A stretch of DNA of 63,635 nucleotides, filler included, from Collodictyon triciliatum (lineage: Eukaryota): assembly GCA_043381765.1 (NCBI GenBank). It is 5 parts of 5 records of this genome, joined end to end, with 100 filler letters (N's around TTAATTAATTAA, not from the genome) between each part and the next. Parts side by side here need not be neighbours in the genome. Positions count along the whole stretch, not along the records: positions 32,235 to 46,771 come from JBHJMP010001804.1; positions 46,872 to 58,540 come from JBHJMP010001805.1; 3 more parts are not named here. The stretch is one strand, 5' to 3'. Below the pieces are notes generated by a model. The model did no database searches. It was not told the origin of the DNA and saw only the letters and a program-made list of their open reading frames with translations. How positions within the stretch are numbered: position 1 is the first letter of the stretch; the number at the start of each line of letters is the position of its first letter. Shown here one piece after another: positions 7,500-58,640 of the stretch. Both the position numbers and the translations under genes were made by a program.

Positions 7500-13296
<5,797 letters not shown>

Positions 13297-17510: not shown

Positions 17511-17610
17511 NNNNNNNNNNNNNNNNNNNNNNNNNNNNNNNNNNNNNNNNNNNNTTAATTAATTAANNNNNNNNNNNNNNNNNNNNNNNNNNNNNNNNNN
17601 NNNNNNNNNN
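17511..17610. other. 100-nt scaffold linker N44-TTAATTAATTAA-N44
   Basis: Identical structure recurs four times; all-frame stop linker. Confidence 0.95.
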
Positions 17611-17759: not shown

Positions 17760-26089
<8,330 letters not shown>

Positions 26090-26437
26090 GGAGATGGAGG
26101 GAGGAAAAAAAACAAAAGGCAAAATGACAATGCCTTTCATGCCTAGAGGAGCTTCTGGTAAAGAAATCAGAAACGAACGAGTAGCAGCCACAGAAATAAA
26201 AAGAAAAATAAAGAGACGACGATTATGAAAAGAGGAATAAAAATAAAAAAATGGAAAATATGCGAATCATTTTATTATATATATTAGGAATAGGTACAAA
26301 AGTACCGACTTGAAGATGAATCGATTTATTTGACCAGTTTGACACTTTGGAACAAGAAAGGAAAAAAAAAAAGAAGAAAATGAAAATGAAAGCGAACTGC
26401 CCAATAGCCCTATATAATCAGAAGAGAGTTCAACGAT

Positions 26438-32134: not shown

Positions 32135-32234
32135 NNNNNNNNNNNNNNNNNNNNNNNNNNNNNNNNNNNNNNNNNNNNTTAATTAATTAANNNNNNNNNN
32201 NNNNNNNNNNNNNNNNNNNNNNNNNNNNNNNNNN
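32135..32234. other. 100-nt scaffold linker
   Basis: N-TTAATTAATTAA-N. Confidence 0.95.
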
Positions 32235-32900
32235 CGTCGCCATTCTTTTTCCGCCTCAAGAACGAACGCTCGTCTAACGGTGCGCAGTCTATGCAGTTCT
32301 CGATGGCTATGGCCTACTCCAAATTCTTTCGATACAAAATATCGCCGCCGACACCCTACAAAAAGTCAAAACATCAACGGTGGGGAGAAACACTGGGCAT
32401 CACCCACGCCCCGCTCACCGCGAGCTGGAGACAAGCACGAACCTCCACAAGTCCTTTCAAATCACCGCTCTCTAATGGTTGATAACACCGATAGGGAGCT
32501 ATGGATAGGCACACGCGCGGCAAAAGCTGGCAAAGTCTCCCAACAATGCACACTTTGCAGCAACGGTGATGAATCCATCGAGCACACGTTTGTACAATGT
32601 CCCTTCGCTCAAAGCCTGCGCGAAACAGCCGGTGAGATTCTTCGACTGACACTCAAGACGGCCGCGGCTGTTGTACAACCCAGGTGATATTTGGGCCTCT
32701 GCAACAGCTGCGTCCAGATGCAAAAACATTCTGGGCAGTGACGCGAGGCCATTTACTATGGACTGTGTGGATAGCACGCACATAGTCACGCAAAGCAAGA
32801 CTCAACAACCAGCCACCCATTCCTGATAATAGACTGAATGAAATCATACAAATCTCTTTACTCAACAGCTTCCTTCGCCACCTGCACGTTCTCTACTACT
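32235..32900 (+). mobile_element. Decayed C-terminal fragment of a non-LTR retrotransposon ORF2 (zf-RVT, L1/Tx1-like)
   Basis: QCTLCSNGDESIEHTFVQCPFAQ matches the CxxC..E(S/T)xxHxFxxC zf-RVT motif, followed by LLWTVWIAR (WxIWxxRN-like); in-frame stops and frameshifts; no introns. Confidence 0.75.
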
Positions 32901-33237
32901 CAGACCCTGTGAGAAGAGACATGTGGAAAGGGACATAGAAAGATATTAAACTTCGCCTTGTATCTCTCATGCAAGCACAAGACCCAGGCTACAGGCCAAA
33001 CCGCAAGATGCAATTGCTGTTTACCGACTACTTCTCCACCACCCAGCCACCGAGTAGCGTCCATGCAAACGATGGCTAGCGAACCAAAGCCAGCATCTCC
33101 ACTATCCTGCACAAAATTGAAAGGAGGAAAAAATCTGGTAGTGAAAGTCACTGGTTGGAACCCTGTTGGTTTGGGATATGCTTTTGGAAGACAGTGCAAA
33201 GCTATCTTCAACTTCAGATTAGGTCTTTGCTTCACAA

Positions 33238-35710: not shown

Positions 35711-35790
35711 AAGTCGTTCTCTTCTTCAATGGCATAACCTCGCTGCACTTTGAATCGAATAAAGGAAAAAAAAAGAAGTCGTTCTCTTCT
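35711..35790 (+). mobile_element. Short poly(A)-tailed retroposed insertion with 15-nt TSD (copy 1)
   Basis: AAGTCGTTCTCTTCT at 35711-35725 and 35776-35790 flanks a 50-nt insert ending CTTTGAATCGAATAAAGG-A9. Confidence 0.75.
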
Positions 35791-35929
35791 CAAGTCACAA
35801 CGCGGGTGTCTCATTGAGAAGTGTGAATCGTGAGTGAGATGAGTTCGACCCAACACAGCACAGCCTCCTTCGCACTATCATTCTACCACAAAATCCTTGG
35901 CTGCAGAGATACTTTTTGACAGCGTTGCC

Positions 35930-36177
35930 AAACAAACAAAGAAACGAAGAAACAAAGAAACAAACAAAGAAACAAACAAAGAAACAAACAAAGAAACAAA
36001 CAAAGAAACAAACAAAGAAACAAACAAAGAAACAAAGAAACAAAGAAACAAAGAAACAAAGAAACAAAGAAACAAAGAAACAAAGAAACAAAGAAACAAA
36101 GAAACAAAGAAACAAAGAAACAAAGAAACAAAGAAACAAAGAAACAAAGAAACAAAGAAACAAACAAAAACAAACAA
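35930..36177 (+). repeat. Compound (AAACAAACAAAG)n/(AAACAAAG)n microsatellite
   Basis: Array upstream of ferrochelatase. Confidence 0.95.
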
Positions 36178-36270
36178 GTAAATAAATAAACGTTCTCCCG
36201 TTTAGTTTTGCTCATAAAGCTCTTGTTTACAGAAGAAAAAGATACAGTTCGTCATTTCAGGATACACAGA

Positions 36271-38933
36271 ATGCTTGCCCCATTCGTTCCAAGAGCCCTG
36301 CATCGGCTCTCCGGTAATATTTTCTTTACTTTTTAAATATTCGGTTCTTTAACAAGCGGCCATTTCCCTTATTCCCCCCCCCCCCCCCCCCCCCCCCAAT
36401 TTTTTCATAGTATCATAGTCTCGAAAAGAAAGAATACATATTAATAATGACCTTGTTCGGCATTCATTCACGCGACCTAGGTTTCAGTCTGTATTCTACC
36501 GCTACAAAGCCACCGTAAATATTTCTCTCATTATGCCTAGTTCTATAAGTAAACTCTTTCTTTTTTCTTCTTCTTGCCCCAAACCCGAACCACAACGGCT
36601 CCTTTTCCTTATCTCGACATAATCTCCTTCTGAAACCAATAAACATCTAAAATGTGTAATCTCGCCTTCAGCCTGCCAGATAGGTCATTAATATGAGAAT
36701 GACCATTAAAACTAAACAAACCTGTCACACACAGAACCGGTATTGTTATGTTGAATCTTGGTGGGCCTGCAGACCAGGCCGAAGTGGAGCCATTCCTTCG
36801 CAGGCTCTTTTCCGACCGTGAAATCATACAACTTCCTTTCCAAAAGTTTGCCGGGCCCTTGATAGCTAAGCGCAGGTCTCCAGATGTTGCGGAACAATAT
36901 CAAAAGATTGGTATGTTATGTGATTGGTCATATTTCAGTTGTTTTATTCTACTATTTAGAGAGGACATGTAAATGATCTCAAATATGAAAACCTCTAATA
37001 AAATCAGTGGAAAAAAATACATCGCTGAGAAACATAAAACTTGTCAGGTGGTGGTTCACCAATTCGCTCATGGACACAAAAGCAAGGAGAGGCTCTTGTG
37101 AAGCTGCTTGATGAAAGACTCCCAGAGACTGGTTACTTTCATTACCACATTTTCCTGGCGATTTACTAAATATATTCATTTGTAAATAAGATACACGAAT
37201 ATGACTTAATGGACATCTTAACATTTGCAATGCTATTATTTTGCATGATATCATTATGACCGTATAAAGATTCCAAATCTAACTTCTTTTTTTTTTCTTG
37301 GTGGCTATGAATGAACCCCTTGCTACAGCTCCACACAAATTCTACATCAGCTTCCGATATGCCAGTCCACTGACGGAAGATGCATTGAATGAAATGAAGA
37401 AGGACAATGTTAAAAGGGCGATTGCTTTTACTCAATATCCACAATACTCTTGCTCGACAACAGGCAATTATTCTGTTTATTTCCTTGAATTAAGTACCTT
37501 TAGTCATTGTGTGTCTTAAAATTCATGAATATCCACTACCTGTAAGATGTTTGTCAGAAAGTTGACTACATGAGTTTAATTTTTATTTGCTTATTGTCAA
37601 TTTTTAATTTTATTCAACATATGGAATTATACAGGGAGCAGCTTAAACGAACTTTGGAGAGGCCTTAATGCATCAGATTCCCTGTCTATGTTTGATTGGA
37701 CAGTTATTGACAGATGGCATTCACATACGTCATTGGCAAAGGTTATTTTAACTGTCTTCGTTCTTTATTTTCTATATATGCCTGATTTCAAGAATCTCCA
37801 AATAATTACTGAAGCAACTTTAGCATCAAAATAGCTCCAGTGCAATAGCAAATGCATACTTTCTGATGTAAATAACTGTAAAGGCCATCGCTGAAAACGT
37901 GAGGGTGGCTTTGAATTCTCTACCCAAAGAAGAAAAAGACAGCACTGTGGTTTTATTTTCGGCCCATTCGCTCCCGCTCAAAGTAGTGAATAGAGGCGAC
38001 CCATACCCATACGAAGTAATCGATTTTTTCTATTATGCAACGTATTATCACATTGTCATAAATTCAGTGTATTTTAACACATTGCTGTATTTTTACTTCC
38101 TAAAAAAATGAAAGAAATAGGTAAAAAACGAAACATATAGAATAAAACTTGTGCATAATATAATATTCCACGTTAATACCACCAGGTGGGAAATACAGTC
38201 CAAAAAGTGATGCAGGAATTAGAACACCCGCTTCCTTTTCGACTTGTGTGGCAATCAAAGGTTTTGAAACAAACACATCGCAACCTGCCTGCTTATTTCT
38301 GTTAACAGAATATTACAGCCAACCTCTCTTTCGTCTTCGGCTGCCAAACAGACCTTATTTGAATAGCTATGAACACCTCTTTCGTTGTTAATTGACCCAA
38401 CCAAACAGGTTGGTCCGCTTCCTTGGCTCCAACCCAGCATGGAGAAGGCCGTGCACGGATATGCCTCACAAGGATACCGCAACCTCGTTGTTGTCCCCAT
38501 TTCCTTCACAAGCGACCACATCGAAACCCTATTTGAAATCGACCAGACATATGCCGACCTCGCAAAGAAGGTGTGACCAAATAATAATAATAATCTTTCA
38601 TTTGCCCCCATCACGGGTTGCAATGGACAGGAAATATCAAAACTCCTCTCCCTCTCTCCCAGCCAATCAGCAACAAACTAATCTGAAACCATTACCTCCC
38701 TTCCACAGCTGGGCTATGCAAACTTTGTCCGCGCGCCTTCGCTCAACACCGAGCCGCTCTTTATCCAAGCCATGGCCGATGTCGTTGTGGACCACGTTCG
38801 TAGCAATCAAAAGTCGTCGTCCCTCCTCAAACTGCGCTGCCCAGAATGCACAAATGCCCAATGCGCAACAACGAAGGACTTTTTCACAACATCTCCACAG
38901 CCCGCTGCCCGCTCCGTCCCGCAGCCGAAGTAG
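36271..38933 (+). CDS. FECH: Ferrochelatase, mitochondrial type with [2Fe-2S] cysteines, 10 exons
   Basis: [82 protein letters not shown]-terminal CPECTNAQC. Confidence 0.97.
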
Positions 38934-39238
38934 AAGGACAATCACGAACTGCTGATGTCTGATGACCCACGTTCTGCACACCCACACTAAACCAATCACT
39001 CTGCCTTCTACGATTTGCTTTGATTTCACAACAGAAAACAAGAATGGAACAATAATAATAATAAATTATCAGGAAAACACATGTCTCGCTTTTCATTTGC
39101 TATTAATATATATTATGTCATCAATCCGCTTTATCGGCGTGTGGAATGATTTTTCCTTTTCTTTTAAGGGGAAATATATACAACCATCCGATTATTGATA
39201 ATGCGATGTGGTTGAATGCTTAAGTCGGATAGCTCTGT

Positions 39239-42200
39239 TTATAATGTTGAGAAATGCACCCTCAGCTGTTTCATCAGTTCATGAGACTCAGTGTGAGTCG
39301 GGCATATTTCCAGTGCCTTTGATGCGTATTTAAAGCTCTCTTGCAGGTCTCCCACCTTATTTGCCAGAAGTGCTACAGGAAAAGAAATGGACAAGAAAAA
39401 ACGGTAAATATTAAGTTATGAAAGAATGATTTTCATTTCCCATGCCCAAATGACAGGCAACGAAGCGCAAGAAACTCAGACCTGCATTAAAGAATGCCTC
39501 GTGCAAGTGTTGGTTGAGTGTAAGAGCAGAGTGGAAATTGGACTTTGCTTGCTCGATGTTTCCCCTACGCAGCTCCAGGACACCGAGATTGTTGAAGGAC
39601 TCTGCATGATGTGGGTCGATGGACACAGCAATCTTAAATGCTTGGTAGGCAAGGTTAACATCCCCGATGCCAATAGCCACATGGCCGAAGTTGTACCTGG
39701 TCGAATATATCATATAGTTATTGGGGAGAGTTATAAATAACTTACATATTTTTAAAATATTTCTTATATAAAACCTCCTCTTTTTGCCATTTTTTTTTGT
39801 AAGCTATTTGAGAATTACCAAACGTCTCCCATATCACCATCGTTTGCAAGAATCAGGGCCCTCTCAAAACAATTCAGTGACATATCAAACTATATTCCCA
39901 TGTGATTGGTAGTTAATACATGAATTTACATGTTTCGGACATAAAGGAATTGCAGCATGCAATTCTCATCGAGTTTGATACCTGTTGGGCATAAAAACAA
40001 CAGAGGCCTATATTTGCCCAAATTTCAGTAGAATTGACTCCCATCTGTGGTATGACAGAGATAATATTAAAATTTTGAATACGTAACAAAAGTTTATTGT
40101 CTTTTTATCTAAAGAAAAAGGGGAAGGATAATTAAGACAATCATTAACAAAAAAAATAATAATAATTAAGAAAAGGTGAATAAAGCATAAACCTGCAGCA
40201 GCCGGCGATAAAATCGCAGTGCCAGCTCTGGTTGGTCTGTATAGAAGTGATTACTAGCAATGCATGCAATCGCCTCAACATTGGCGCTGTCTATTTGAAG
40301 CACTTTTTTATAATACAATATGCTTTTGGGGATATCATTGATTGCATCATAGACACGCGCCACGCCTGTCAAAAGCGAAACGTCCCCAGGGAATCTTTCT
40401 GAGCCCTTCAAATAATATTCCAGCGCAGTATTGGGTTGATCCATCTTAAGATATACTTTGCAAAGTTCAAGGTATGTGGAGACCATTTCCTAATGAAGCA
40501 ATTAAACTGAGAATAATAATAATAATAATAATAAAAATAAAAAAACAGAGAACATCTCACTGGGTTATATATACAGTCTACGTTCGCTTTAATATATGAT
40601 AAATGTAGTATTCTTATGTTTGAACATATTCCAGAGGCAATTCACCTGATTTTTCAGGGAACTCTTGAATTGCCGCTCTGCTTCACGAAGCAAACCTAGC
40701 TTGTAGTAACACTTTCCTAGTCTCGCCTTCCACCACCAATCTTTGAAGGTATATATGGTTAAAGATGCAGCTCTCTGTCCTTTTCAATCGTGACGAAGAA
40801 AAAAGGGGTGTGAAACTGTGATAAAAAATGTCCTTCGATCATTATTTGTACTTTTTTTAAAAGAAAAATACTAAAGAACAATCAAATATTATCCCAGCAG
40901 TTATAGACAAAAGAAGAAGGGTAGAAGTGAAAAGGATATTCGGATTGTGCGGTCGCCAGCGAGGCGAGTTCAAGCGCTTTCCTTGGGTTTTGTAGTTGAT
41001 ATAACATGTAGTCACATAACATCTTTGCTAGCGCAGGTCGAGCAGCATACTTTCTCAAATCTAACTTATCGACGTTGATGTAAACACCTCCTGGGTCTGA
41101 AACCATACTTGCTGTGCCCAAGCGAACAAACCTATCATAAGAAAAACAATAAGTTCCACAAGGTTGGATTTCAATAGAAATAATGAAAATAAGAAAATAA
41201 GAGCATCCATCATAAAAAAAAATCATTATAGTGACATCTGCCTCATAAATGTTAAAGCTGCACACCTTCCAGATGACGTTACCGGTCTGCTAGTCCCAGG
41301 GCGATTTCCTTGGAAGGCCTGGTCCACGGTCATATTACCAGTCGATGGCCTGCGAAAATAAATTATACATAATGATAAGTTCTTCAATTATAATTCTGAC
41401 TTTCTAAATTCCTAGCAAAATAATAAAATAAAAAAACTCGCCCCCACTTTCGTTTTATTTATGTTTAAATAAGCTACAATGTGGTGTGATGTGATGTGAC
41501 CAGACCTTGAGGACCCTGTCCCTGGACGTGCGTATCCAGAGAGTGGGCGACCCGAAGCGCTGACCGGGCGCACAATCTGGCTTTGGGGCCCCGACGCAGA
41601 CGTCAATGGACGCGCAAGAGACGTGCCTGGGCGAGGCAGCTGAGCAATAGCATTCTGATCCATGAGCAGCTCTGCAACGCCCTCGTCTTCCATGTCCATC
41701 ACATCGTCCACGTAGGTCTTTTCGATCATGGCGCGTGTTTTCAGAAACCATACAGCCTGTTGTCCGTTGTTTTCGTGTTGAGAATGAGAGCGGCGCAATT
41801 GCGTGATATATTTCACAAAGCACAGGTAGGCCGCGATGTTGTCCAGATGTAAGCGGGGCATAAAAAAATAATAATAGGAAAGGAAAAATAGAAAATAGAA
41901 AATAGAAAATGAAAATAAAAATAAAAATAAAAATGAAAAAAGAATAAAATGAAAAATACAAAACGAAAAATAACAAATGAAAATAAAAATGAAAAATAGA
42001 AAATGAAAAATAGAAAATGAAAAATAGAAAATGAAAAAAAGAATAAAAATGATAAAATAAAAATGAAAATTAAAAAAAATGAAAATGAAAAAAGAATAAT
42101 AATCAAAGGGGATACAATACTGAACAATCGGCCCACAAGATATATATAACAGAGATGTGAAGAGTGGGTGACTGAAGGGCGGAACGACAAGCCTGATCGA

Positions 42201-42351
42201 GAGGATTGCGCTCGAGTAGTTGCGTGCACTTTTCGACGCAGGGATCGAACCGACGGCGACGATAAAGACTAACGGCATAGAAGACAGGATCCATGACATT
42301 GGGACGTCCTTTCGGCCCATCTGCGCCGCTTGGAGAAGAAGGGATGTCCAT
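39239..42351 (-). CDS. TTC8: Tetratricopeptide repeat protein 8 / Bardet-Biedl syndrome 8 (BBSome subunit)
   Basis: MDPVFYAVSLYRRRRF, PRPGTSL, RPVSASGRPLSGYARPGT, RFVRLGTASM, DWWWKARLGKCYYKLG, NHFYTDQPELALRFYRRLLQMG, HAESFNNLGVLE. Confidence 0.97.
40749..40939 (-). other. U12-type (minor spliceosome) AT-AC intron in TTC8
   Basis: Donor ATATCCTTTT, branch TCTTTAACC 8 nt before the terminal AC; removal restores ...AQSD-FKDWWWK in frame. Confidence 0.9.
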
Positions 42352-42956
42352 CGGCCTTTACACCTGGCTCTCTCTCTCTCTCTCTCTCTCTCTTCCGCCC
42401 TTGAGAGGATTCCACAGCAAAAGGCAGGTTTAAGCAAGCATGCATCCATCAAAGAAACACCACGCAGAGGGAGAATAGCATAGGTGAAAGGCATAGTTGT
42501 GCTATTTTTCCTTGGGCTGCGCGAGTTCACTCTCTCTCAAGCAACAGACTGGGTTTGGAAAGCAGCCAGTTGATTGCTCCGCCATAATGCGAGTTGGAGA
42601 GGCGTGTGATTCAAAAAAGTGTTTTGTTGGGGCAGCTCAAAGACCTGAACTTTCTTCGTGGAATCAGTCCAGAATTATACAACGTTTATTTATATGTGGA
42701 AAATATAATATTAATTATATATTGTGCACAAAATGCAGAATTTAGACTTTAAAAATCTATTAAATATGCATCTATATACTTTCCTATCATAATGCATACC
42801 CATCTGCGAGTTGCGGTGCTGTGACTTAAACCTATGGGGCTGTCATACGGAATTCATATTCTTCTGCAGATGAAGCACTCCATTTAACCAACCTCGTTTC
42901 CCTTTATTTTGTTTGCTGACAAAGGCCATCAGGAAAGTCGTGCATCTGTGAAGGAA

Positions 42957-45900
42957 ATGTCGATAAGGCCAAGTCTTCCAAGCCTCCCGCCTCTCAAAAT
43001 CACCTCAGAGACTTCAGAGGTCTGTTATTTTTCGCACTATATTGGCGATCTGCGGCAACGTTCTCTTGGTGCCTGTTTTGCTTATCTTTTTTCTTTTTTT
43101 TCTTCTTCTTTTTGAATATGATTGAGTTGGTGCTCTGTTCACCACCAGCACCTAGAGCTCCCAGAAATGCACTTTCCATACGTTCTTTTAAATGACCCTA
43201 TAATATTCTTTCTTTCTTTGTTTTTTTTTCTTCATATAATTAAATATATAATATCCAGCCACATTTTTTAAAACCCCACACCGGTATTTTTTTTTTCGTT
43301 GCAGGATCGAAGCAAGGATCATGAAAACAGCCCAAAGCTCCAAAACCCTGACACAATATACGCAACATCAAGCGCGACTATGGAGCCGAAAGAAAGGAAG
43401 AAAGGAATCTGGTCCAAGAAGAAAAAGAAGGGAAAAGCAGCCGACGACTTCAATTCTGTTCCAAAGAGCTTTTCTTCAGAGAAGGAAGAATCAAGCACGG
43501 TTGATATTTACATTTATTTGAAAATTCGTTGGAGAATGGGAATATTCATCTACATTCAAAGCATAAAGAACAAAAGCGCATCATAATAATAATTTTGAAT
43601 AAACATAGAGCTTTAATAGAGATATAATTCAACCAGACAACCGATAACTTCAGTGATATAAGTGAGGCCGAAAAGATGAAATTTAAGGAGAAGAAGAAAC
43701 ATTTCTGGTCGAAAAAGAGCAAGTCAGTGAAAGATGAGACGAATCCAGACTCGTGCCATAAAGATGATGTCTCTGAAACTCCAAAAGGACTTTATATACC
43801 ACCAAGTGACACCGACGGAAGTTTTGCTCCATCTAGTCCAGTAGAATCTTCACTGAAGCATACTCAAAGCGATGTAGATTATCCTGTCTGTATAAATCCT
43901 TTCCAATTTCATAAATGATGTACGTTCATTTTTCTTTCAAAATATCGTGTATTAATCTGATATAGACGACTAAACAAGTTTTCATCTTAGGAGACGAGTT
44001 CCTCGATTTCTCCAAAGGACCCAAAAAGTAAATTCTGGAGAAAATTACAGAAAAAGAAGAAATTATCTGGTATGATTACATAATACCTTCTTTTCTGGGG
44101 ATACTCAAAGAACCTTATGTTGACCAGTGTAATTTTTTTCAAAGCGACGCTTGATTATTACCTAGAAGATTGATTAACCTTATCCAATACACCACATTCG
44201 TATATAGTGGAGATAGGTGCGCCTTTTAATGTGGTACATCAGTCCCACGTTGACTTCGAATACAACTGGACTTTACATGACCCTAATAAAACATTCGAAT
44301 TGCTCGATCTGCTTGGCACTGGGTAGAGCTTCATTTTTAAACTTTAAAAACCAATCATTAAAAAGAGTTAATCTATCAAATATTTAACCGAAACTCATTG
44401 CCAATTCATACATTGAAACAGAACATTTGGTTCAGTCTACAAAGCAAGACACAGGGAGTCTGGTTTCATATTAGCCGTAAAGTTAATTAAAACTAATGAT
44501 GCAGCTGAGTAAGTAGCAATTTTCATTCATGTCATTACATTTTAAGAGTACCACTACTGCTAATTTTTTTAAAAAGAAAATGTAGGGCATATGTACTGTT
44601 CTTCTTTCGTATTTCCTTTCAATATCTTGGTTCCCATCCAGGTTTGAAGAAGTCATCAAAGAGGTTGAGATTCTAAGGAAATTGAAGCACCCTAATACAG
44701 TATCATATTACGGCTGCTGCGCTGTGAGCAAAAAAGAACTATGGGTAATTTATACTTTATACATTCACTATGGAAAGAAGTTACTATGCTTGATTCCTCG
44801 ATTTACTTGAATGACTTTGTCATAACCGAATATGCCATATTATGTGCTATGTCACCATGGCAAACCAGTTCTTTCTCTTGTTCAGATTATGATCGAGTAC
44901 TGCGATGTCGGTTCGGCTAGAGATTTTCTGGAATTATGGCCAGGTAACGTGTACTACAGAGAAAACTAATACAATTGAGCTTAAGTATAAATCGATCATG
45001 TTGACCTGTTCGTCAATATAACTGGATTTTTTTTTTTCAAAGATGAAACTTCAAATGAGACAATTTGTAAAGACGGAACTGTATATAATTCATACACCAC
45101 GTAGATACATTATCTGAACAGCAGATAGCGACTATTCTGTCCCATACTCTGCAAGGACTGGCATACTTGCACGAAAATAGGATTGCACACAGTTAGAAAG
45201 TTATTTCCACCAATATTTAATATTCACTTTCATGTAGTTCATCACCATGACAGGAATTTTTATTACAATTTTTTCTTGAACATTACAAGGGGATATAAAA
45301 GCCGCAAATGTGCTCCTGAATTCATCTGGACAAAGTAAATTAGGTAATTAAATTCAAAATGGCAAGAAAATATGTTTAAAAATCATATATGAGTTTTCAA
45401 AAGATATAATACCATTCTCTTCATCGCCATGTGAAGAAAAAGAAGAAAAAGAAGAAAAAGAAGAAAAAGAAGAAAAAGAAGAGGGGAAGAGGAAGGAAGA
45501 GAAAGATATGAAGCTCATTATACTTTTTTATTAAAAAATTAACCTTTCTACAGCTGATTTTGGCGTCGCTGGGCAACTTTCTAAATCCTTAGGCAAGGTA
45601 ACTCTGAGAGCTACATATTGAATAGTTTTGCCTGTCTGTAATCAGCAAATTATACATATTTTAATATATATCTAGTTGAACGACTTTGTGGGAACCGTTC
45701 TTTTTATGGCACCAGAGATATTCCAAGAGCGAGCTGGCTATGACCTTTCAGTAGCATTCTTGTCTATTACATCTTTATCAAACATGATTTATCCTATGTC
45801 TAATAATAAGGCATATGTTTAGTGAGAATATGAGCGTCAGATTTATCAGTATGTGTCTCTTTCTTATACTTTGTTCTTACCTTTTCTACAGGCAGACATA

Positions 45901-46771
45901 TGGTCTTTGGGTATAATGTCAATAGAACTGGCCGAACGGGGCGAGGTTCCTTATTGTAACGACCGGGTTATGACCGTAAGTTGACATAACATAGTCATTC
46001 TGTTGAAAATTATATATATATGGGGTTTTACTTATTTTTCTGAACATATTGCGATTTTACTCATGTGACTCAGGCGATGCAAAAGATTGCAAGCAACCCG
46101 CCACCAAGCTTGACAGACACGATGAAGTGGTCTCCTCAATTCCGTGATTTTGTTGGACTTTGCTTGCAAAAGTATGAAACTTTGAGAGTAAAATTATATC
46201 TCTAGCTTTTTGAGATATGCTTAGATTTTAATCGAGACTGTCTTTAATTTTTCTTCTCTTCCAAAATTTCATTTGCCTAAGGATAATAGTCGAAACCTGC
46301 CAACTTGCATAAATTGAAAATATTTAGTATTTTTTTTTTATCAAATAACATGTGTGGAATCTCTTTGAATCGAATAAAGGAAAAAAAAAAAACAAGTGTG
46401 GAATCTCTTAAAGCTGCTCATCCTATTATCACTACAACACACAGAGACCCATCCCGACGTCCAAAAGCTAAGATGCTTTTGAAACACCCATTTATCCTGA
46501 GCCATCGATCTGATATATTAAGAGAATGCATACTTTCTGACGATGAATCGCAGAAGGTAAGCATGCAACTACTTTAAGAATAGAGATAAACACAAAAAAT
46601 TACGATAAAGGTTTTTTTTTTAAAAAATAAATCAAACAAGAGCTATCAATGCTGTGCAGCTTTTAGTATGCCGCATGGAAGCCTTTTAATTATTCTGCAT
46701 TTTCATCATTTAGTTACCGACAATACCTCGAGTTGCATCCAAATCTCCAAGAAGAGCACAAAAGAATTCGG
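42957..46771 (+). CDS. STE20-family Ser/Thr kinase with CRIB-like motif directly before the kinase domain; 3' end cut by gap
   Basis: EIGAPFNVVHQSHVDF, LGTGTFGSVYKA, AVKLI, HRDIKAANVLL, ADFGVAGQL, GTVLFMAPE, ADIWSLGIMSIELAE. Confidence 0.92.
46352..46409 (+). mobile_element. Short poly(A)-tailed insertion with 14-nt TSD (copy 2), in a kinase intron
   Basis: GTGTGGAATCTCTT at 46352-46365 and 46396-46409 flanks TGAATCGAATAAAGG-A12-CAA. Confidence 0.75.
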
Positions 46772-46871
46772 NNNNNNNNNNNNNNNNNNNNNNNNNNNNN
46801 NNNNNNNNNNNNNNNTTAATTAATTAANNNNNNNNNNNNNNNNNNNNNNNNNNNNNNNNNNNNNNNNNNNN
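46772..46871. other. 100-nt scaffold linker
   Basis: N-TTAATTAATTAA-N. Confidence 0.95.
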
Positions 46872-47083
46872 AAAAAAAAAAAAAAAACAAAAAACAAAAA
46901 ACAAAAAACAAAAAACAAAAAACAAAAAACAAAAAACAAAAAAAACAAAAAGACAAAAAGACAAAAAGACAAAAAGACAAAAAGACAAAAAAACAAAAAA
47001 ACAAAAAAACAAAAAAACAAAAAAACAAAAAAACAAAAAAACAAAAAACAAAAAAACAAAAAAACAAAAAAACAAAAAAACAG

Positions 47084-49470
47084 GACCACGACGCCCCCCA
47101 GAAGCAAGCAGCAGCAGGAAGGCCCATTCCAATGCAGCCACAGCCAAGACCAGGGGCGCAGTTTGCCGGAGGCGCTCCGCTGGTGGTAGGGGGCCACTTT
47201 GCAGGGAGTCCCACCGGGGTGTTTGCGCCGCAGCTGCTTCTGAATCCCGCGTGGGGAGGGCAGCCTCGCCTGGACACCCGTGTCTTTGCGCTGCAGGCGA
47301 CGCACGCACAGGGCCAGCCATCCGGTCAAGTGCCACACACCTACGCCGCAGGCATTCCGCACGGGAGGCCCGAGACGCACTTGCCGCCATTCCACCCCAT
47401 GTCCGGCGTCTCTACGATGGGCTTTGCAGATAACCCTCGTGCCTGGATGAACGACCTGGTGGGCTGCCCACCCGCCTTCATTTCCTTCTTCTTGTTTTCA
47501 CGGTTGATGATGCTTTTGTTTTTCTGTGGATTTATTTCATTTCTTTTTCGATAGTGTATCTGGGTCATATTGATTAATCGACATTTTTATCTATCCATTC
47601 ATCTATTGTTGTGAGTAGAGTAAGCTCATGCTTCTGTATCATATCATGATGTTTAATTTTATTTAATTGATTATTTATTCTTTCTCGATTCTTTAATTGT
47701 CCAATTTTTATTTTTAATGAAATTATTTTGATTGTTTTATATCGATTGATTTTGACTCTTTGATTGATTCAGGATTACTCTCGCCCCGAGAGGTATGACT
47801 CTCAGAGGAACTCGCCACCGCACCGACGCAGCCGTGATGGATTTTCGCGCGACTATCCAAAGGACGGCCACCGAGACTACCGCCGCGACCGCGACCACGA
47901 AAGGGATCGAAGCAGGGAAAGAGCCCGACAAAGAGACAAAGAAAGAGACAGAGAGAAAGAGCGGGATAGAGATAAGGACAAAGAAAAAGACAGACACACT
48001 CGAGGAACCCCGCGCAAGGCAACCAAGTTGTTGTCTGCATCTAAATCGAATGCATCCGTGGAAGATGCCCAGCAAGAGCTCGTAGAGTCTAAAGACAGAG
48101 CTACACATTCTGACTCTGCCTCCTTGGACCGAGTCGAAAATGCACTGTCAACGCCAAGTGAGGGCTTGTTGGAATCAAAAGACACTGAAAAAATGGTTGC
48201 TGCGACTGATGGTTTGACGATGTTGTTCATTTAAATGTGTATTCTTGCCTTTGAATCGAATAAAGGAATTTTTTTGTATTCTTGCGAAATACCATGAGTG
48301 ACTCATTCCAATAAAGTTCGTAGATAACACACCTATAGGCGAAGATGAACCAACACATTATCATAATTTGTTTTTCACACCCGTTACAGATTGCCAGGGC
48401 TCCTTGCTGGGCCGTGACCAGGAATCCTACCACCATGAGCAAATCGAAGTGCCTGCTGAATCTACAACGATTAGCCATAATAGCATGAATGAAGAAGCAA
48501 CTTTCTCCCAGTCAAGCACAGTACTGCAAAAACTAGACGAAAGACTCCCGCATCACGAGGGTATGAAGCACAATCTGACTCAAAAACTCACCTGTGGTGT
48601 ATTTAATAAGATAGATATTCATCCATGTATTCCAAATGGTACAGCGATGCTGACATCATTTATTTATTTAGACGGCAATAAGTGCACAATAACAGGGAAA
48701 TCTACAATAAAGGTATTCTTGGTGTTGCGTGGGGGATTTATTCCTCCCTCTTCTAACTTATTTTAAGTGTTTAGATTGATAAAAGTGATGGTGTATTTTT
48801 GAAATTACCTGTTCACATCATTATATAAAATTTTATATTTTCATAATAACATACTTACGTACCAATCATATATTAGCAGGATTTATCTTCGAAAGAGTCT
48901 CAACAAATCTCACCCAAAGTTTCTGGCAAATCCGGTGTCCAGCAAGAAGGGAAAACAGCTGGTCTGGGGTTATCAGAGAGTCCAAGTCAAAAAACCCAGC
49001 TGTCAATTCCAACTCTGAGTCAATTGAGCTCTTACGATATGGGTGAACTTCAAAGCATGTATGAACAGGCGAGACAACGACAAGAATCCATGGAGGCGGA
49101 GTTCTTTCGATTAAGACAAAATCTGCTAGAGTCGTGCGTCATCAAGGAGGAGCTGCAAAGAACTGCCGACACTATTCGAACTCAGTTACAACAGTTTAAG
49201 GAAAAGATCATCGAGAAACAAGAGCATAAGAAATCGCTCGAGCAGAAGCTTATTCCTCTGGAACTGGAGCTGGAAAAAATCAGAAGAGCTGTCATTGAGA
49301 AGAAAATAGAATCGACGCATTACCAACTAGCGGAGCTGCTTTCCCAACAGGAGAACGAGCAATACCAACAGCACGAATCCACCATCTCAATCACACTCGC
49401 CCCAACACCAGCACGAAATGCAGAGTTATCCACGCGCCATATTCCTTCGACCATAAACCCGACGAATTAA
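47084..49470 (+). CDS. Partial hypothetical protein: Pro/Gly-rich segment, Arg/Asp/Glu-rich segment, C-terminal coiled coil
   Basis: Exons with GT-AG borders (~47084-47458, 47773-48211, 48390-48560, 48878-49470); RDRDHERDRSRER repeats; heptad-rich last exon. Confidence 0.6.
48238..48285 (+). mobile_element. Short insertion with 11-nt TSD (copy 3), intronic
   Basis: TGTATTCTTGC at 48238-48248 and 48275-48285 flanks CTTTGAATCGAATAAAGGAATTTTTT. Confidence 0.7.
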
Positions 49471-50177
49471 TAGGGAAAAATGTATCGATGCACGGAATAT
49501 GTTTATCTTGATGGCTTTTTTTTTTTTTGTTTGTTTGTTTGTTTTTTGCGTGGACTGTTCAGCTTTGCTCAAAGACTATCATTATTAGTACTTTGTTTTT
49601 TTTTTTATGTCATATATGATGATATTCGTTTATTGCTGTGTATATATTTCATTCCATAAGCTTCATGGGGTTGCCTTGCGAGGCTGGCTGGGACTGTGGC
49701 AATTCTAGTGCACTGATATGACTGATTGCGTAAATAGAAGATTTGAGTATGCAGGTTCGAACAGAAACCCCAAACCGCTCTCTGATACTAAAAATATATC
49801 TCCAGAAAAGTCTATTCTAATGAACAGAAATAAATATGGAATATATAAGTATATCCATACAAAATTGTAAATTATCCTTTAATGCTTTATGCATGCATAA
49901 ATTTACTACACATATGTATTTTTGTATAATAATAAATGGCTGAATTCACGACTGAACAAATGGCAACAGCGCTTTGGCAAGTTTGGTAATCACTGCGAGT
50001 TGATTCTGCTCGATAGACATCCCAAGCAGAGACACAGCGAAGCGCAGAAAAGGATCACAAGACTTTGGCGGCGGCAGGAGCGAAGAACCAGCGAGGAGGA
50101 GAGACCAGGCAAACGCACGTGGCAAAAAAGAGACAAAAGCGATAAGAGCGGCTCTACTTCCTTTGCTCTTCCTTTGA

Positions 50178-53100
50178 ATGGAGCGGGAGTTGGCGCAAGC
50201 GGCAGAGATCATCAAAGGTAACCGCAGATTCTTTCTATTCTCTCTTTTTTGTTTTCTCTTTTTATTCTTTCTATTCTCTCTTTTCTTTTCCCTTTTTTTT
50301 TTCAATTCAAGCAATTATTCGACAGCTTTAATGCCTCTCATATACGCGAACTGCAGACCGATTCTTCTTTGTGTCACTCCGCGTAACACCGAGAGACAAT
50401 GAACGTGCTCTGTTTTTTTCCGTGGATAATGAGCTTGTCTATCTTCATTTCTTCAATGACTTTGGGCCACTCAACATGGGTCAACTGTACCGTTTTTGCA
50501 ACACCCTCAAAGCCAAGTTATCGGTAAGTTTCTCTTTTCTTTTCTTTTCTTTTCTTTTCTATTGAGCATATCGGTATAAAATATTTCTCATGTTTTTTTT
50601 TTTGCTATTGTTTCTTTACTGCGAGATGACCCAAACGATTGAGCAAAATTAACAATATGAGAGTCACGTCTTTGATCGAAAATACTGCCTCTGATATACG
50701 ATGGGACATTATGGATAAACTTGATTCTAGGATTCGAGAAGCCGCATCGTCTATATGTACTCGAGCTTTGATGCACACAAGCGCGCAAATGCTGCGTTCC
50801 TAATTGGGGGCTATCTTGTAATTATGAATGCAAACAAAAAAGCATCCCCATGCCATATTAAATAGTCTTATATGTTGTGTTCATGTTTGTTTTCTAAGGA
50901 ATTTTGATACTGGTAAAGCCTGTCTCAGACTATTTTTCTCATACGCTCCATGGAAACATCTACAGATAATGATGATGGACTATTCCCCTGAGGATGCGTT
51001 TCGACCTTTGGCCAACATCCACCCAAACTTCACTCCCTTTCGAGATGCATCGTATGGTGCCTCAACATTCCCTCTTACACTTATCGAGTGCTTCAGGGGA
51101 CTGCACAAAGGCAAGATATTGAAATGGGTGGACTTTTCGCTTTTCAACATAACAGAGTGAGTATTTTGCTTCTGGTGGATTTTAAAAGTGGACTGCAAAT
51201 ATATACCAACACTCAGTTTTCATGTCAGCTAAGAAAAGAAAAAGAGAAATTGTTGCAATATCATGAATTGGAAAATTATTTCAATTGTCATGTATTAATA
51301 AATGAACCTCTTTAAGATTACCACACATTTATTAGCTGTCAGTCTTTTTATTTTCAATTATATTTAATCCCTTTTTTTTTTTCCCACCGCCATTCATTAT
51401 CAACCGCATCGGATTTTTAGATATGAGTATTTTGAACGAGTTGAAAATGGAGATATGAATTGGATAGTCCCAGGAAAGTTTCTAGCATTTAGCGGACCGC
51501 ATGCAGTCTCAGTCGAAGAAAATGGTTTCCGGACTCTCACGCCTGGTTCGTATTTTACTCAATATTGATGGGATATTTTAGAAGATTTTTATCTTCCCTC
51601 TCCCAAAACGAAAATCATCTTAACTAAATGATAATGACAAAGTCTTCCATTCGACCCCATCAACAAAACGACAATTTAGATTACTATATCCCACACTTCC
51701 GGAAAATGGGTATTGCTGCTGTGGTTCGATTAAACAAAAAAATTTACGACAGGCGTAAATTTACAGATGCAGGTCTGACCTCGACATAATAAAGCTAATT
51801 GTTCTCTAATTAATATATATTTTTAATATTTCCAGAATTGTATATTGAGACTGCTTAAATGTGTTTCGAATTTAATATTGTTATGGAATCTAGGTATAAA
51901 ACACCATGAATTATACTTCACTGATGGAAGTGCTCCTAGTGATGCAATTGTTAGAAAGTTTTTGGATATTGCAGAGGGAGAACCAGGTTTTTTATATCTT
52001 TTTTCTATTTCTACTTTTACTTTTACTTTTACTTTTACTTTTACTTTTACTTTTACTTTTACTTTTACTTCTACTTGAACTTCTACTTGAACTTCTACTT
52101 GTACTTCTACTTGTACTTCTACTTGTACTTCTACTTGTACTTCTATTTCTATTTCTATTTCTACTTCTACTTGTACTTGTACTTGTACTTGTACTTCTTT
52201 TTCTTTTTCTATTTCTATTTCTATTTCTATTTCTATTTCTATTTCTATTTCTATTTCTATTTCTATTTCTATTTCTATTTCTATTTCTATTTCTTTTTCT
52301 TTTTCTATTTTTCTAAATAATTCAAAAAAGGACACCGTTATTTATTGATACGCGCTTATATGCCCTGATAATCCGTGTATAACATACAATCAACATTTCT
52401 AGGAGCGATTGCCGTACATTGCAAGGCAGGACTGGGTAGAACAGGAACGCTGATTGCATGTTATATGATGAAGCACTATCGATTCACCGCTACGGTTCGT
52501 TTATGATGAATGCCTAAAAGTTATAATATAATGTTAAGGAAGAGAAGAAATCATGTGAAAATTTCATGAGGAGCATTTTCAAAAATAAAGTAAAAATAAA
52601 TTACTCTATGAATACAAATAAAGGAAGCTATAGCTTGGATTCGAATATGCCGACCAGGAAGCGTTATTGGTCCCCAGCAACATATACTGATAGAGTAGAT
52701 TATTAAACACTTCAATAATGAGCTTGTTTCTGTCACAGAGGAAAACGAATACTCAAATATAATCAGATATCCTTTTCTCACCCTCAGCGCTATACTCTAG
52801 TTGATATATTCAAAATTTTTTTTTTTAAAAAAACTCACCTTTAATATATCACAGATACCAGCCGAGGCTGTGGAAGCAAGGTTCTCAAATAATTTACCTT
52901 AATGTATAACCTCCATGTGTTCTAAAACTGTACATACAAACTAATCTACTAAAATGAATCCTCGTTAGGGGAGACTACCCAGAGGCCAACTGCAAACTTG
53001 CAGTCAAGTTCTGTCTCTAATACACAAGGAGTAGTTGCTTTACAAGGTTTTAATTGTTTGGACTTTTTATAAAAAAAATCTGCTGTCTTCTCTTGTCACT

Positions 53101-54699
53101 TTATTGTCCTTATATTACCATTTTCATTTTCATTTTCATTATGATTGTTTATATTCGTATTCATATTTTCATTATCATTGTTTATATTCGTATTCATATT
53201 ATCACTATTATTCTAGTTCTTGTTATTTTGTATTTTCACTTGCTTCCTTTCCCACACGTATTATTCTGACAGTGATGCATAACCACAATCAGCCTCATTT
53301 TCACCAATATAATCGCATAAAGGTGTTCTTTGTATTAACACTTTCATAATTCCTTCTTTTCTTCTTTTTGGTTCGAAAGAAACTGAAGGGGATATCCGCA
53401 CTTTAAGCTCTGGCATGAAGGTGAGTATTGTAGTCGATATCTATTAGATAAAAAAGTGTTAAGTGAAATCCTAATACATACGACAAAGAACCCTAACATT
53501 ATTTGAATCTGTATTTGCGTTTATTTTATTTTTTCCTCAGCGCCTTTCCATCGATTCTCGAACAACGGGTCCAACTTACATATCTAAAGTGAGTGATAAC
53601 GCCTATGTTCATTGGTTGTTTTTTTTTTTTTTTTGAAGAATTATAGTACATATTTTATTCTGATTTTTATCGTCGGTGATTGAATCAGACACGAACCCCT
53701 TCATCGGCCACATCCCGACCTAGCCCCCATTCGTCTGGTATTCAAAATTAGAATTTACATTAAATACATGCAGTGCCTTATCGCACACAAATATTTTTCA
53801 AAAAAGTTATTAAAGTGAATTTGGTGCCAAAATGACGAGTATATTCTGTGTAGGCCCTATTTCGCCCATCCGTTCGTCTCTTGGGTGAGTTTGATGAAGG
53901 GTTCAGGATTACAGAAAGTGTATGAAATATCAATGCTGTTACCTAACCTGATTTTTTTTTTTTGTCATTAGAGGTAGAGATATGTCTGCCTTACAGTATT
54001 ATTCCAGCGCCCAAAAGTATATAAATGTGTTATTATCATACTCACACTCACGCATTTCGTTCCTCCTTTTGAATCTGTGACAAAATTTTAAAACAATTTG
54101 ATTCTGCTTCTTAACTCCTCGTGGGAGATATCTGCATTTTTTTTTTGGTTTGAGATTAAGAACTAAATCTGCCCTCATTGTCATATTCTCCTTCTCCTTG
54201 GCTGTTTTCAGTTCGGCATACCCTCCATCATCACACTCCCCTCTGTCATATTCTCCTGCCTCTCCATCTGGATTTGGGTGCGTCTCTTATCATTGTCCCA
54301 AACCCATTATGGTTTTCCTAAACATCTGTATTTTAAATCACGCGTGCACCTTATGTGTCCTTTGAAATCCTCACAAGCATGATATACCCAGGAGTGGCCC
54401 TTCATATGGGCGTGCTTCTGTTCGCACAACCAGCGTATCGCTCGATGGCCCACCGAAGCCACGCAGCAGGTTTTAAAATAGACCCACATAAGATATAAAG
54501 CTACCTGCCTTGATGCAAAATATTATTGGTTGTAATGAAATAAAGAAAAGAAAGCCAACAATATATTTTTGTTGTGTTTGTTTTTTCTTTTTGTAAAATA
54601 AATCCGATACATAAGCATTTACAGGCATGTAAAAAGTCTTTAAATTCCTGTAGTAGTGCCGTTTCAGCAAGACCACGGCATGGCACTGCTTTTATGTGA
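50178..54699 (+). CDS. CDC14: Cdc14 dual-specificity phosphatase
   Basis: [77 protein letters not shown]; Ser/Pro-rich tail exons to TGA 54697-54699. Confidence 0.95.
52004..52313 (+). repeat. Compound hexamer microsatellite (TTTTAC/TTCTAC/TTGTAC/TTCTAT), intronic
   Basis: Blocks of related hexamers in a Cdc14 intron. Confidence 0.9.
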
Positions 54700-55276
54700 C
54701 AAGTATTGTTCCTTTTAAGGATTTTATTAGTTCTGGTTGAGTACATCAAACACAGTCGTGGTTATCAGCTTCCGAGCATACGGATCCACTATTCCCTTTC
54801 CTTTCATTTATCTTCTATTTTGTGTGAGTCTGCAATCATCTAGATGTCCCTATCCCTGAAATTCGTGTCTTTGTTGAGTTGACAAATATATTCACTTAAG
54901 TCACTAAGACGAGAGAAAAAAGGGACTAGAATCATCGTGGGCAAACCTCCAATTTTCGAAGCTTTTTTCATTTTTCTCTGCCAAAAGGCACAAATTGTCT
55001 AAGCTGCTGTGACATTTGTGAAACCCTACATCGAATGATATGATGTTGTGCTGTATTTCATCTTTTGATTTTCTTTCCCATATGACTGTCATGTGTTGAA
55101 TCAAGTTCGTTTTTATATATTTTGGATAAACCGCTCATCAAACAATAAACACGGAGCCAAACAAGCAAAGCGTTGAAGATTAGTTCCTCCCTTTCGCAGC
55201 TTTCGACTTTTACGTGGTTTTATGTTGTATGGATGTTGTCAATTCCATTCTTTTTGGAGCACACTTTTTGGTGCTG

Positions 55277-58019
55277 TTAAGAAAACTCTACTTTCGTCCG
55301 AACCAGAAGCATATCTGTGCTTATGTGGCACGCCGCGTAGAGGATATACATATAATTTTCCCAAGTGCTGATGAATACTTTCCAACTTCCCATGATGGAC
55401 ACCCGAAAGCGGTACCTGCACGCAGAGTTCCATAAATTACAATAATTATTCTTTTTTTTTAATAATACAGAGTGAGCCGAATAGATTAAGTCTGAGCAAG
55501 AAAACAAACGCGATGTATGGATTATAAGAGGTAAAAAAAAAAAAAAAAGCTATGTGATTCTGAATGGAAACTGAGATGCTACACAGTCTATTCATATACA
55601 ATTTCGTGCGCAGTACTTAAACAGAAAAAAAAACAATGTCACCTGTAAATGAACTCGAGAAGAAGAACGACTACCGTCTCCCCGAGAATCGACCAATACA
55701 CATACTCTAAGTCTCTACCTCTCTTATCGTCCAGACTGACGTTGCGAAACAAGTGCCCAAACGGAAGATGCCTGATAACCACCTCGATGAGGAGGAGATT
55801 AAATATTCCATTGAAGAACCCGGTGATGCGCAAAGTGTATTCCACACAAGTTGATGAAAGGTAGGTTTTGTACTCCTCCTTTGTGTATTACATCGTAATG
55901 CTGAGTACAATTCGTCATTATATATTACATGAGCTATATGGTTTGGGTATTCACTATAATGGAGTTCATAACCTCTATTAAAAAAAGGACTGGGGAATGA
56001 ACTAACGGTTGGCTTAAACCTTGAAATGGGTTCGTATCACAAAGAGAGGGAAAACAACCACAAATGACTGCATTTTCTTACTTCCTCTGTTCTGTCAGTT
56101 GGGTGTGAAGAGCTGATAAAGAATCGTTCGATTCTCAGCTGCAGTTTATGATAATATGGAAGTGCCAATATATAATACGTCCCGATCTCAAAAATCGCAG
56201 CTTGGAACTGATTTATAATTACGAAGTATTGATAGAGATTAGCAACAACTAGGTAAGTACGGAGACAGATGAGAGGAGAGATAAATAAAGATAACAAAGA
56301 TACCAAAAAAATATAGATAGGAAAAACCTGTATGATAAGAAATGATTCGACATTGTCCACTGCGTCGAACAAAGCGCGGTAGAATATGAAAAAGAACATG
56401 TGTATCATAAATACGAGACATTGGCTCATGCTGCATCGATTCAACCCTTTATCATAGCGGTAAGCCAGGAATCGAATAAGCCAGCGAGCGAAGAAAAATC
56501 CAAGCTGAAACATGAAGCTGACCACGAACTTCATTTTTTTTTTTTTGTGTGTGTTTTAGAGAGAAGGAAAATAATCTATAGCAACGAAGGACTCAAGTAG
56601 CGTGCTAAGAAATTTTACAGCCTTATATGTAACTATGTGCGATGAAAATTTGTGTATTATTGATGTAAAATGTAACAGTTCACCTGCTCTCTATTCGTTT
56701 TCACGGACGAGAATACAATAAGGGCGTTCTGGCAGAAGAAATAAACCCCAAATGAATAGACACTCATCAACGATACGTGCCAGAATTGTCTAATATGATG
56801 TATTGTGCTGAGCATTGTGCTATGAATTGTTTGAGATTGTGGTCGTTTTCAAGTTGAATATGACTTGTGAACCTTTGAAACCGTTTTTTAGCGCTAATCT
56901 TTGATTGATCAGGAAGCCTATTCACAGAATCCGAATACATATCCGAGACAGAAAGCAGCCAAGCACGGTTTGATTGAGAACCTGCTGCAAGAACAAGTTC
57001 TAACTTCTTTTATAAAAAATGGTTGTCAAAAAGAATTGCAAATAAATATTTATCTCATAAAATCAACATTAACAAATCGGCAAAATCGTATCATATAAGA
57101 AAGAAAAGGATTATTAATGAAATTAAAAGATGGACGAATAGATAAGATATTCAATAACTCACTTCATCTGGCCCGTAGACAAATGAGAGATAGTATACGA
57201 AACAAACAAAGAAAATAACAAGTCCTGCTATGGTGGTTAAGAAAGGGTACTCTGAGAGCGTTGTTGGGCCAGCAGAAAACAAAATCCCAGTGTTTAAGAT
57301 AAATCCCGATGTAAATAAAATTTTCCTATGATATGGTAATGCAATTCTCTTTTTTAATAGATGCCAACACAAAATCAACGAGTGATATAATACTAATACT
57401 ACTAATAATACCAATAATACTAATAATAATACTAATAATAATACTAATAATAATACTAATAATAATACTAATAATAATACTAATAATAATACTAATAATA
57501 ATACTAATAATAATACTAATAATAATACTAATAATAATACTAATAATAATACTAATAATAATACTAATAATAATACTAATAATAATACTAAGAATAATAC
57601 TAAGAATAATACTAAGAATAATACTAAGAATAATACTAATAAGAATAATACTAATAATAATACTAATAAGAATAATACTAATAATAATACTAATAAGAAT
57701 AATACTAATAAGAATAATACTAATAAGAATAATACTAATAAGAATAATACTAATAAGAATACTAATAAGAATAATACTAATAATACTAATAATAATAGCA
57801 GTGGGATATTAGTAGGGTCCAAATAAAGCGAATGAAAAAATACCAAGCAGATACCGGACATGTTTCTTGAGGCATGGCGTACCAGTACTGAGCCAAGTTC
57901 AACGGGAACGATATTGCGTAATATAGCGAATGAAAGAAGAATACGTATACATAGAAGTTAAGGGGATCGCCTTCTTCGTCCACACCCCCTCCATCCTGGG
58001 TTTTTAGTGTTTCTGCCAT
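55277..58019 (-). CDS. Multipass membrane protein of unknown family
   Basis: Exon chain from ATG 58019 (MAETLKTQ...) with many hydrophobic segments (FYVYVFFFHSLYYAISF, LVIFFVCFVYYL, CLVFMIHMFFFIFYRALF, VVVLLLEFIY); stop 55277-55279. Confidence 0.6.
57388..57797 (+). repeat. (TAATAATAATAC)n compound AT-rich microsatellite, intronic
   Basis: 12-mer array with TAAGAA variants. Confidence 0.9.
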
Positions 58020-58477
58020 AGAGTGCGCTGCGTCTTGTTGGGTGTGCGTCTTGCTGCTTCGCGAATCAAACGACCCGGTTAAAGGACACGCGAAGAAAAT
58101 CACTGTGGAAATCGCGGGCAGCACAAAAACAGAGACTGTGCGGAGCAGTGTGCTTCTGTCCCATTCAGGAGCGCGCAGACTTGCAGCCGGAAACAAATCC
58201 TCCGGGCCAGCAGCGAGTGCAGCCGCGCTGCTCGCAGAACCGCGACTTGCAATCATCTTAACTTGCTTGTGCTTATTATCGTTGTTGTCATTATTATCGT
58301 TGTTGCTTTTGCCACTACTGTCTTATTCGACTCTGGATATCTGGCATCACCTCGTTGTGGCTCCGCAGAGCAAAGTTGTGACAGGAAGAGCATACGGGCC
58401 AACAGTTGAGTGTGGGTGATGATCTTTGTCTGTATGGATGCTTCTTTTCCATATACTTTTTTTTTTTTTTTTTTTTA

Positions 58478-58519
<42 letters not shown>

Positions 58520-58540
58520 TTTTTTCATTTTTTTTTTTTT

Positions 58541-58640
58541 NNNNNNNNNNNNNNNNNNNNNNNNNNNNNNNNNNNNNNNNNNNNTTAATTAATTAANNNN
58601 NNNNNNNNNNNNNNNNNNNNNNNNNNNNNNNNNNNNNNNN
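58541..58640. other. 100-nt scaffold linker
   Basis: N-TTAATTAATTAA-N. Confidence 0.95.

Follow-up and report, generated by a model that had tools for sequence, protein, structure and literature searches.

Three very short insertions carried by a 63,635-nt stretch of the Collodictyon triciliatum genome assembly GCA_043381765.1 (the window, i.e., the whole stretch of DNA analyzed, filler included) are, in all likelihood, dead-on-arrival, 5'-truncated copies of one poly(A)-ended, L1-like long interspersed nuclear element (LINE) of the apurinic/apyrimidinic endonuclease (APE) type, which would have been deposited by target-primed reverse transcription (TPRT); they are referred to below as stubs 1 to 3. 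Such an origin is favored because a 19-nt core recurs exactly in all three of them, because each copy sits between its own perfect direct repeat, taken here to be a target site duplication (TSD), and because a parent-type LINE 3' end with the identical tail exists in a metagenome contig (L002). The marks of TPRT are seen across the stubs as a common 3' end, differing 5' ends (38 nt plus three further bases, 16–19 nt and 19 nt of LINE sequence, respectively) and TSDs of variable length.

A search of the whole window on both strands returned three exact matches to the core, all on the plus strand (35748–35766, 46363–46381 and 48249–48267), which is where the initial annotation of this DNA had placed them, and with up to three mismatches allowed the window holds four matches, compared to a mean of 0.09 in 100 shuffles. 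The fourth match (20434, minus strand, three mismatches), having neither a tail nor a flanking repeat, was judged to be a chance occurrence. When the whole window was scanned for direct repeats of at least 10 nt lying no more than 200 nt apart, only a handful of close direct repeats were seen outside the simple-sequence arrays, the three stub repeats standing out among them, and the repeat and insert lengths claimed earlier were obtained anew with the same values (Table 1). A second scan, in which A-runs followed by a repeat of sequence from upstream were looked for, picked up stubs 1 and 2, one more candidate at 21646 and three A-tailed, repeat-flanked cases (5638, 40128 and 50228) that were rejected as being of low complexity or unrelated. 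The insert of the additional candidate consists of three odd bases, the last six bases of the LINE and an A-run, and, as only six bases tie 21646–21694 to the LINE, it is listed as possible stub 4 and left uncounted.

Table 1. Insertions found in the window and the features that bear on their interpretation (positions are counted along the whole window)
Feature	Position	Strand	Details
Stub 1	35711..35790	+	TSD 35711-35725 and 35776-35790 (15 nt, perfect); insert 35726-35775 (50 nt)
Stub 2	46352..46409	+	TSD 46352-46365 and 46396-46409 (14 nt, perfect); insert 46366-46395 (30 nt)
Stub 3	48238..48285	+	TSD 48238-48248 and 48275-48285 (11 nt, perfect); insert 48249-48274 (26 nt)
Possible stub 4	21646..21694	-	17-nt TSD with one mismatch (21646-21662, 21678-21694); 15-nt insert
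Dead sister-family LINE fragment	32235..33133	+	ORF2 C-terminus, frame breaks and stop, 3' untranslated region, tail and A6
Putative intron holding stub 2	46172..46444	+	273 nt; GT at 46172, AG at 46443-46444
Intron holding stub 3	48212..48389	+	178 nt, GT..AG; skipped by X1 and X2 RNA contigs (cut +1)
Artificial spacers	17511-17610, 32135-32234, 46772-46871, 58541-58640		N44/12-nt linker/N44
Spacer parting stubs 1 and 2 from stub 3	46772..46871	.	N44, 12-nt linker, N44

The TSD sequences differ among all three stubs, and so does the anatomy of what they enclose. The insert of stub 1 is made up of three bases, 38 nt of the LINE tail, A8 and a G, and its three leading bases, which differ from L002 at two positions, are perhaps filler or family variation. 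That of stub 2 consists of 16 nt of the LINE tail, A11 and CAA, with three more LINE bases being common to the end of the TSD at its 5' junction (i.e., microhomology, by which its LINE part could be anything from 16 to 19 nt), and its TSD grows to 19 nt if one mismatch is allowed, the extended start being A-rich (AAATAACA...). Stub 3 holds 19 nt of the LINE tail, one A and T6, without any overlap at the 5' junction; its T-run (48269–48274) lies outside of the duplicated target. Counted from the final GGA, the tails thus read A8+G, A11+CAA and A+T6, in agreement with the A-runs, and the T-run in the third copy, noticed previously; A-tails are, therefore, present in two of the three stubs, and all three end in the last 16–38 nt of the parent. 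The TSD of stub 1 starts with AAG, and the A-rich TSD starts of stubs 1 and 2 fit priming of the nicked strand on poly(A).

The longer parent element that such stubs call for was sought and L002 was found, a 1157-nt metagenome contig carrying the element on its minus strand and matching stub 1 over 46 nt at 97.8% identity (blastn). Its open reading frame (ORF) has a zf-RVT match (E 1.5e-7) that includes the CCHC motif and corresponds to a LINE ORF2 C-terminus; the ORF is followed by a frame break and then by a stop codon, after which come a 3' untranslated region (UTR) of about 75 nt, the core-bearing tail and A10. The end of this UTR is the 38-nt tail of stub 1 (37/38 identical), and what precedes the core in stub 1 runs on into the LINE 3' UTR. 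The core occurs at 13 loci among the metagenome contigs, 12 of which have flanks unrelated to those of L002 and the stubs, its five matches in the prokaryote genomes are all unrelated in their flanks, and the viral contigs gave no match. The concern that the core might be an adapter or a contaminant was looked into as well and did not hold, since the core sits inside a natural LINE 3' UTR and is not adapter-like. A word-index search with the L002 ORF returned seven related protein fragments and no long relatives; P0003, which is 99% identical to L002, reads through the frame break of the latter. A full library search with protein P0001 gave 16 representatives, of which four long ones (E 2e-12 to 2e-4; P0012, P0014, P0015 and P0018) were scanned for domains, and Exo_endo_phos, RVT_1 and zf-RVT were all present in each of the four. 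Judging by its sequence, the parent would be an APE-type, L1-like LINE whose own reverse transcriptase (RT) and endonuclease regions are predicted from these relatives. The ORF2 C-terminus carries a PCNA-box-like motif, Q-x-x-I-x-x-F-F, in L002 (205–552, minus strand), P0001 and P0008.

That this genome hosts the LINE clade is indicated by the window, where a dead sister-family fragment is present (Table 1), its 5' side being cut off by a contig end. The fragment is 92–98% identical to P0002 and approximately 54% identical to P0001 (tblastn), and 67.7% identical to L002 (blastn); the counterpart of the PCNA-box-like motif reads Q-x-x-F-x-x-Y-F there (33011–33034), and its tail, related to that of L002, is nonetheless different, no stubs of it being present elsewhere in the window. 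A search of one literature library returned no paper on tail-only LINE insertions this short, nor on diphylleid LINEs, and, as far as that search goes, the LINE family appears to be undescribed.

A case that seems to be independent of this assembly was met in P0007, a 136-residue protein encoded by a 561-nt contig of another assembly that is 91% identical to the L002 frame and thus belongs to the same LINE family. P0007 has a 14-residue insertion absent from the four other aligned family members (4/4). Within it, a 9-residue stretch agrees at eight of nine residues with stub 2 as translated from the reverse complement, and this stretch has a copy of one 7-residue repeat on either side. This is best read as an antisense stub with a duplication of its own, nested in a LINE copy, in which case the four other members would represent paralogous, not allelic, empty sites, and the reading frame suggests the LINE part of the nested stub to be 18 or 19 nt. 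Residues 1–37, at the N-terminus of P0007, fall outside the family alignment, and ahead of the nested stub its contig may hold a further rearrangement or a change of frame.

Going by TPRT as it is established for such elements, the LINE endonuclease would nick the target, the freed target 3' end would prime synthesis on the A-tail of the LINE RNA, and cDNA synthesis would be over after only 16–41 nt; the short cDNA would then be joined to the other target end, through 3-nt microhomology in stub 2 and perhaps with three filler bases in stub 1, and filling in of the staggered second cut would leave duplications of 11–19 nt. TPRT that ends in a 5'-truncated copy is well known as a mechanism, and it is the shortness of the product that is unusual. 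Truncated copies of human L1 are alike in keeping the poly(A)-ended 3' terminus while varying at the 5' end, in having variable TSDs (11–19 nt here) and microhomology at the 5' junction, and in relying on an ORF2 that combines APE, RT and a Cys-rich region (seen in the relatives in our case). In PMC11702581, 5' truncation is reported for 76 of the 99 de novo human L1 insertions, with microhomology of at least 2 bp at the truncated 5' junctions; PMC2912911 likewise describes microhomology where truncated L1 copies begin, and has abortive intermediates healed through microhomology-mediated joining. There are also differences from human L1: the LINE part is 16–41 nt here, as opposed to the median of 712 bp given for de novo L1 in the former paper (PMC11702581), the tails are short where they consist of A (8–11 A) and T-rich in one stub, the 5' ends possibly coincide at a single base 18–19 nt from the tail, and a PCNA-box-like motif closes the ORF2 of the clade.

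Several observations weigh against the TPRT origin proposed above, or at least limit how far it can be carried. The tail of stub 3 is A+T6 rather than an A-run, of which simple poly(A) priming gives no account (a U-tailed, i.e., modified, RNA 3' end could, speculatively, explain the T-run), and an A-rich start is missing from the TSDs of both stub 3 and possible stub 4, so that two of the four sites (stubs 1 and 2) fit an endonuclease-type site pattern and the other two do not, four sites being too few for a consensus. An empty allele was seen at none of the three sites, the read mapping having covered the surroundings of stub 3 only, and no DNA contig crossed stub 3 (X3 has zero depth over 48117–48293, and X5 contributes one read). 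L002 comes from a metagenome rather than from this genome, represents only the last ~1 kb of the element and contains a frame break, and the RT and endonuclease domains were seen only in relatives that are about 30% identical over the C-terminal part. Finally, the P0007 case is read at the protein level alone, and, with three or four insertions only, a preference for a start 18–19 nt from the tail could be a coincidence.

As for why the products are so short, the start of stub 3, that of stub 2 (within its 3-nt ambiguity) and that of the P0007 stub possibly fall on one and the same base, 18–19 nt from the tail, and the reading preferred here is that there may be a real bias to an early stop of synthesis or early loss of the template at about this distance. 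The shortness could instead stem from survival and assembly, TPRT having acted as above with truncation points as widespread as in human L1 and the long copies having been purged from a compact, gene-dense genome or having collapsed at contig ends, which would leave near-neutral stubs in introns and spacers as all that can be seen, an explanation that is possible, if somewhat unlikely, when taken by itself. It would account for two of the three stubs being found in short introns (178 nt as defined by RNA and 273 nt as deduced from ORF pieces), for the sole long LINE fragment of the window adjoining a contig end and for the introns of 112–314 nt, by which the genome looks compact; it does, however, predict scattered 5' ends, which the possibly shared start base speaks against. 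In addition to an early stop, long copies are probably hidden by selection, the genome being compact, and by biased assembly, and the idea of an element that mostly deposits stubs may owe something to both, as the sole long LINE fragment is at a contig end.

Going beyond the bias itself, one could tentatively, and with considerable doubt, propose that the LINE has a built-in or host-imposed stop about 18–19 nt from the poly(A) junction, that tail-only scars are its main product and supply introns with small insertions on a regular basis, and that the fixed distance is a physical ruler (e.g., the ORF2 footprint on the RNA, or the second-strand cut point), perhaps tied to the PCNA-box-like C-terminus. 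A different route to a fixed length, which we consider unlikely, is that the RT had only a short template, LINE RNA having been cut or trimmed to an ORF2-protected piece (~19 nt plus the tail) from whose end the enzyme ran off. The potentially recurrent 5' end would follow from it, and the three unmatched 5' bases of stub 1 and of possible stub 4 would fit non-templated addition, which, as performed by RTs of non-long-terminal-repeat elements at the template end, is reportedly the subject of PMC8857657; neither is there any structure in the LINE tail RNA beyond that of shuffled controls (z -0.37) that would be stable enough to stall the enzyme. Stub 1, with its 38–41 nt, indicates, however, that the template was not always short, and the microhomology of stub 2 fits the joining of an unfinished cDNA equally well. 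The early-stop, selection/ascertainment and short-template readings are not mutually exclusive.

The remaining explanations concern the origin of the insertions rather than their length, and all are highly improbable. The initial annotation had left the choice between a LINE and a short interspersed nuclear element (SINE) unmade, and of the two, the LINE is upheld by the L002 3' end, the variable TSDs and 5' ends and the microhomology, while the SINE is not. SINEs with a LINE tail are alike in having the LINE 3' end in common and in being mobilized by LINE machinery, and a micro-SINE (a tiny non-autonomous retroposon with its own transcription unit and a borrowed LINE tail) would share its 3' end with the LINE in the same way as SINEs using stringent-type LINEs do; the stubs, in contrast, are without a defined 5' end, promoter region or unit length, their 26–50 nt inserts being too short for a promoter, and seem to be fragments of the LINE itself, stub 1 extending upstream of the core as described, and neither a tRNA nor any Rfam family was found anywhere in the window. 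That amplification, library preparation or assembly (e.g., template switching) created the stubs is hardly credible either: the three are, admittedly, known from one assembly alone and reached by none of the other DNA runs, yet an artefact would not be expected to give, jointly, a precise duplication of 11–19 nt, the natural 3' end of the donor and an A-tail beside the 3' duplication, the like insertion in the independent metagenome protein P0007 speaks against an origin peculiar to this one assembly, and the core does not resemble an adapter. Captures at double-strand breaks come without regular TSDs and need not begin at the tail, whereas every case here has both an 11–19 nt duplication and a complete 3' end, which makes endonuclease-independent capture of LINE cDNA or RNA fragments at random breaks scarcely conceivable as the source, even though retrotransposon sequence capture at breaks is a documented process (PMC4516963).

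What makes such insertions worth attention is that scars of 26–50 nt escape standard repeat annotation, and that one of those described here (stub 3), and presumably a second (stub 2), sits in a gene's intron, the gene of stub 3 being expressed, and brings AATAAA there in the sense orientation. Little is understood as yet of how LINE integration is completed (second-strand cleavage and 5' joining), and, if the recurrent 18–19 nt start holds genome-wide, the natural products of a deep-branching protist would mark one sharp failure or hand-over point of the process; the window by itself offers three or four events only.

The gene context is best defined for stub 3. Four runs (including X1, X2, X3 and X5) were mapped to 47083–52000 only, and X1 and X2 behave as RNA, giving spliced contigs and one poly(A) loose end at 49480; another loose end of an X1/X2 contig is what we take to be a cDNA-synthesis oligo. 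Stub 3 turns out to lie, in the sense orientation, inside an intron of an expressed plus-strand gene, and the apparent stop codon that an ORF list shows just before it is intronic. Stub 2 would likewise be located within an intron of a kinase-like gene in the sense orientation, as deduced from ORF pieces in a region beyond the RNA mapping: the flanking pieces read ...FRDFVGLCLQK and DPSRRPKAKMLLKHPFI, which presumably represent the end of a protein-kinase domain, and the short kinase-like pieces upstream of stub 2 gave sub-threshold Pfam matches to Pkinase (E 0.04–0.05). For stub 1, the nearby feature is a cyclin-domain ORF lying roughly 500 nt upstream of it. The host gene of stub 3 is polyadenylated at ~49480, a few bases past an AT-rich signal, which is followed by GGGA and A's (49460–49480), an end that resembles the LINE's own (AATAAA, GGA, A-run); judging by this one site, cleavage in this organism may take place unusually close to the poly(A) signal.

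The layout of the window has a bearing on one further claim. At least five contigs are chained in it by four identical spacers, each made of 44 N, a 12-nt all-frame stop linker and 44 N; stubs 1 and 2, 10.6 kb apart, belong to one contig (32235–46771), and stub 3 belongs to another (46872–58540). The distance and relative strand of stub 3 with respect to stubs 1 and 2 are, because of these being separate contigs, meaningless, so the "three copies within 13 kb" (and all on the plus strand) noted at the outset has to be given up as partly an artefact of the joined contigs. A separate gap of 902 N is found at 10477–11378. The DNA of the window is eukaryotic, with cyclin, LRR and vitellogenin-type domains and with GT..AG introns whose splicing is documented by RNA. 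Simple repeats are abundant both at contig ends and in contig interiors (1–50, 28262–28445, 32040–32134, 35929–36168 and 46872–47082): (AAATC)n opens the window, GGTTT/GGTTTT-type repeats occupy 28262–28445, a T-run of more than 90 is seen at a contig end, and further arrays include (CAAAGAAA)x30 and (AAAAAAAC)x27.

Some look-alikes deserve a brief mention. A match at 10090 was featureless and was dropped. The segment at 26342–26375 is similar to the LINE tail (85.7% to L002 across 35 nt) and is followed by A11, any flanking duplication being no longer than 6 nt; it is not counted as a stub, although an old insertion or one from a different family is as conceivable as a chance match. At 54179–54257, a perfect 14-nt direct repeat surrounds a 51-nt insert that has neither an A- or T-run nor any likeness to the LINE tail, and this might represent a short duplication in tandem or else a small insertion of a different type.

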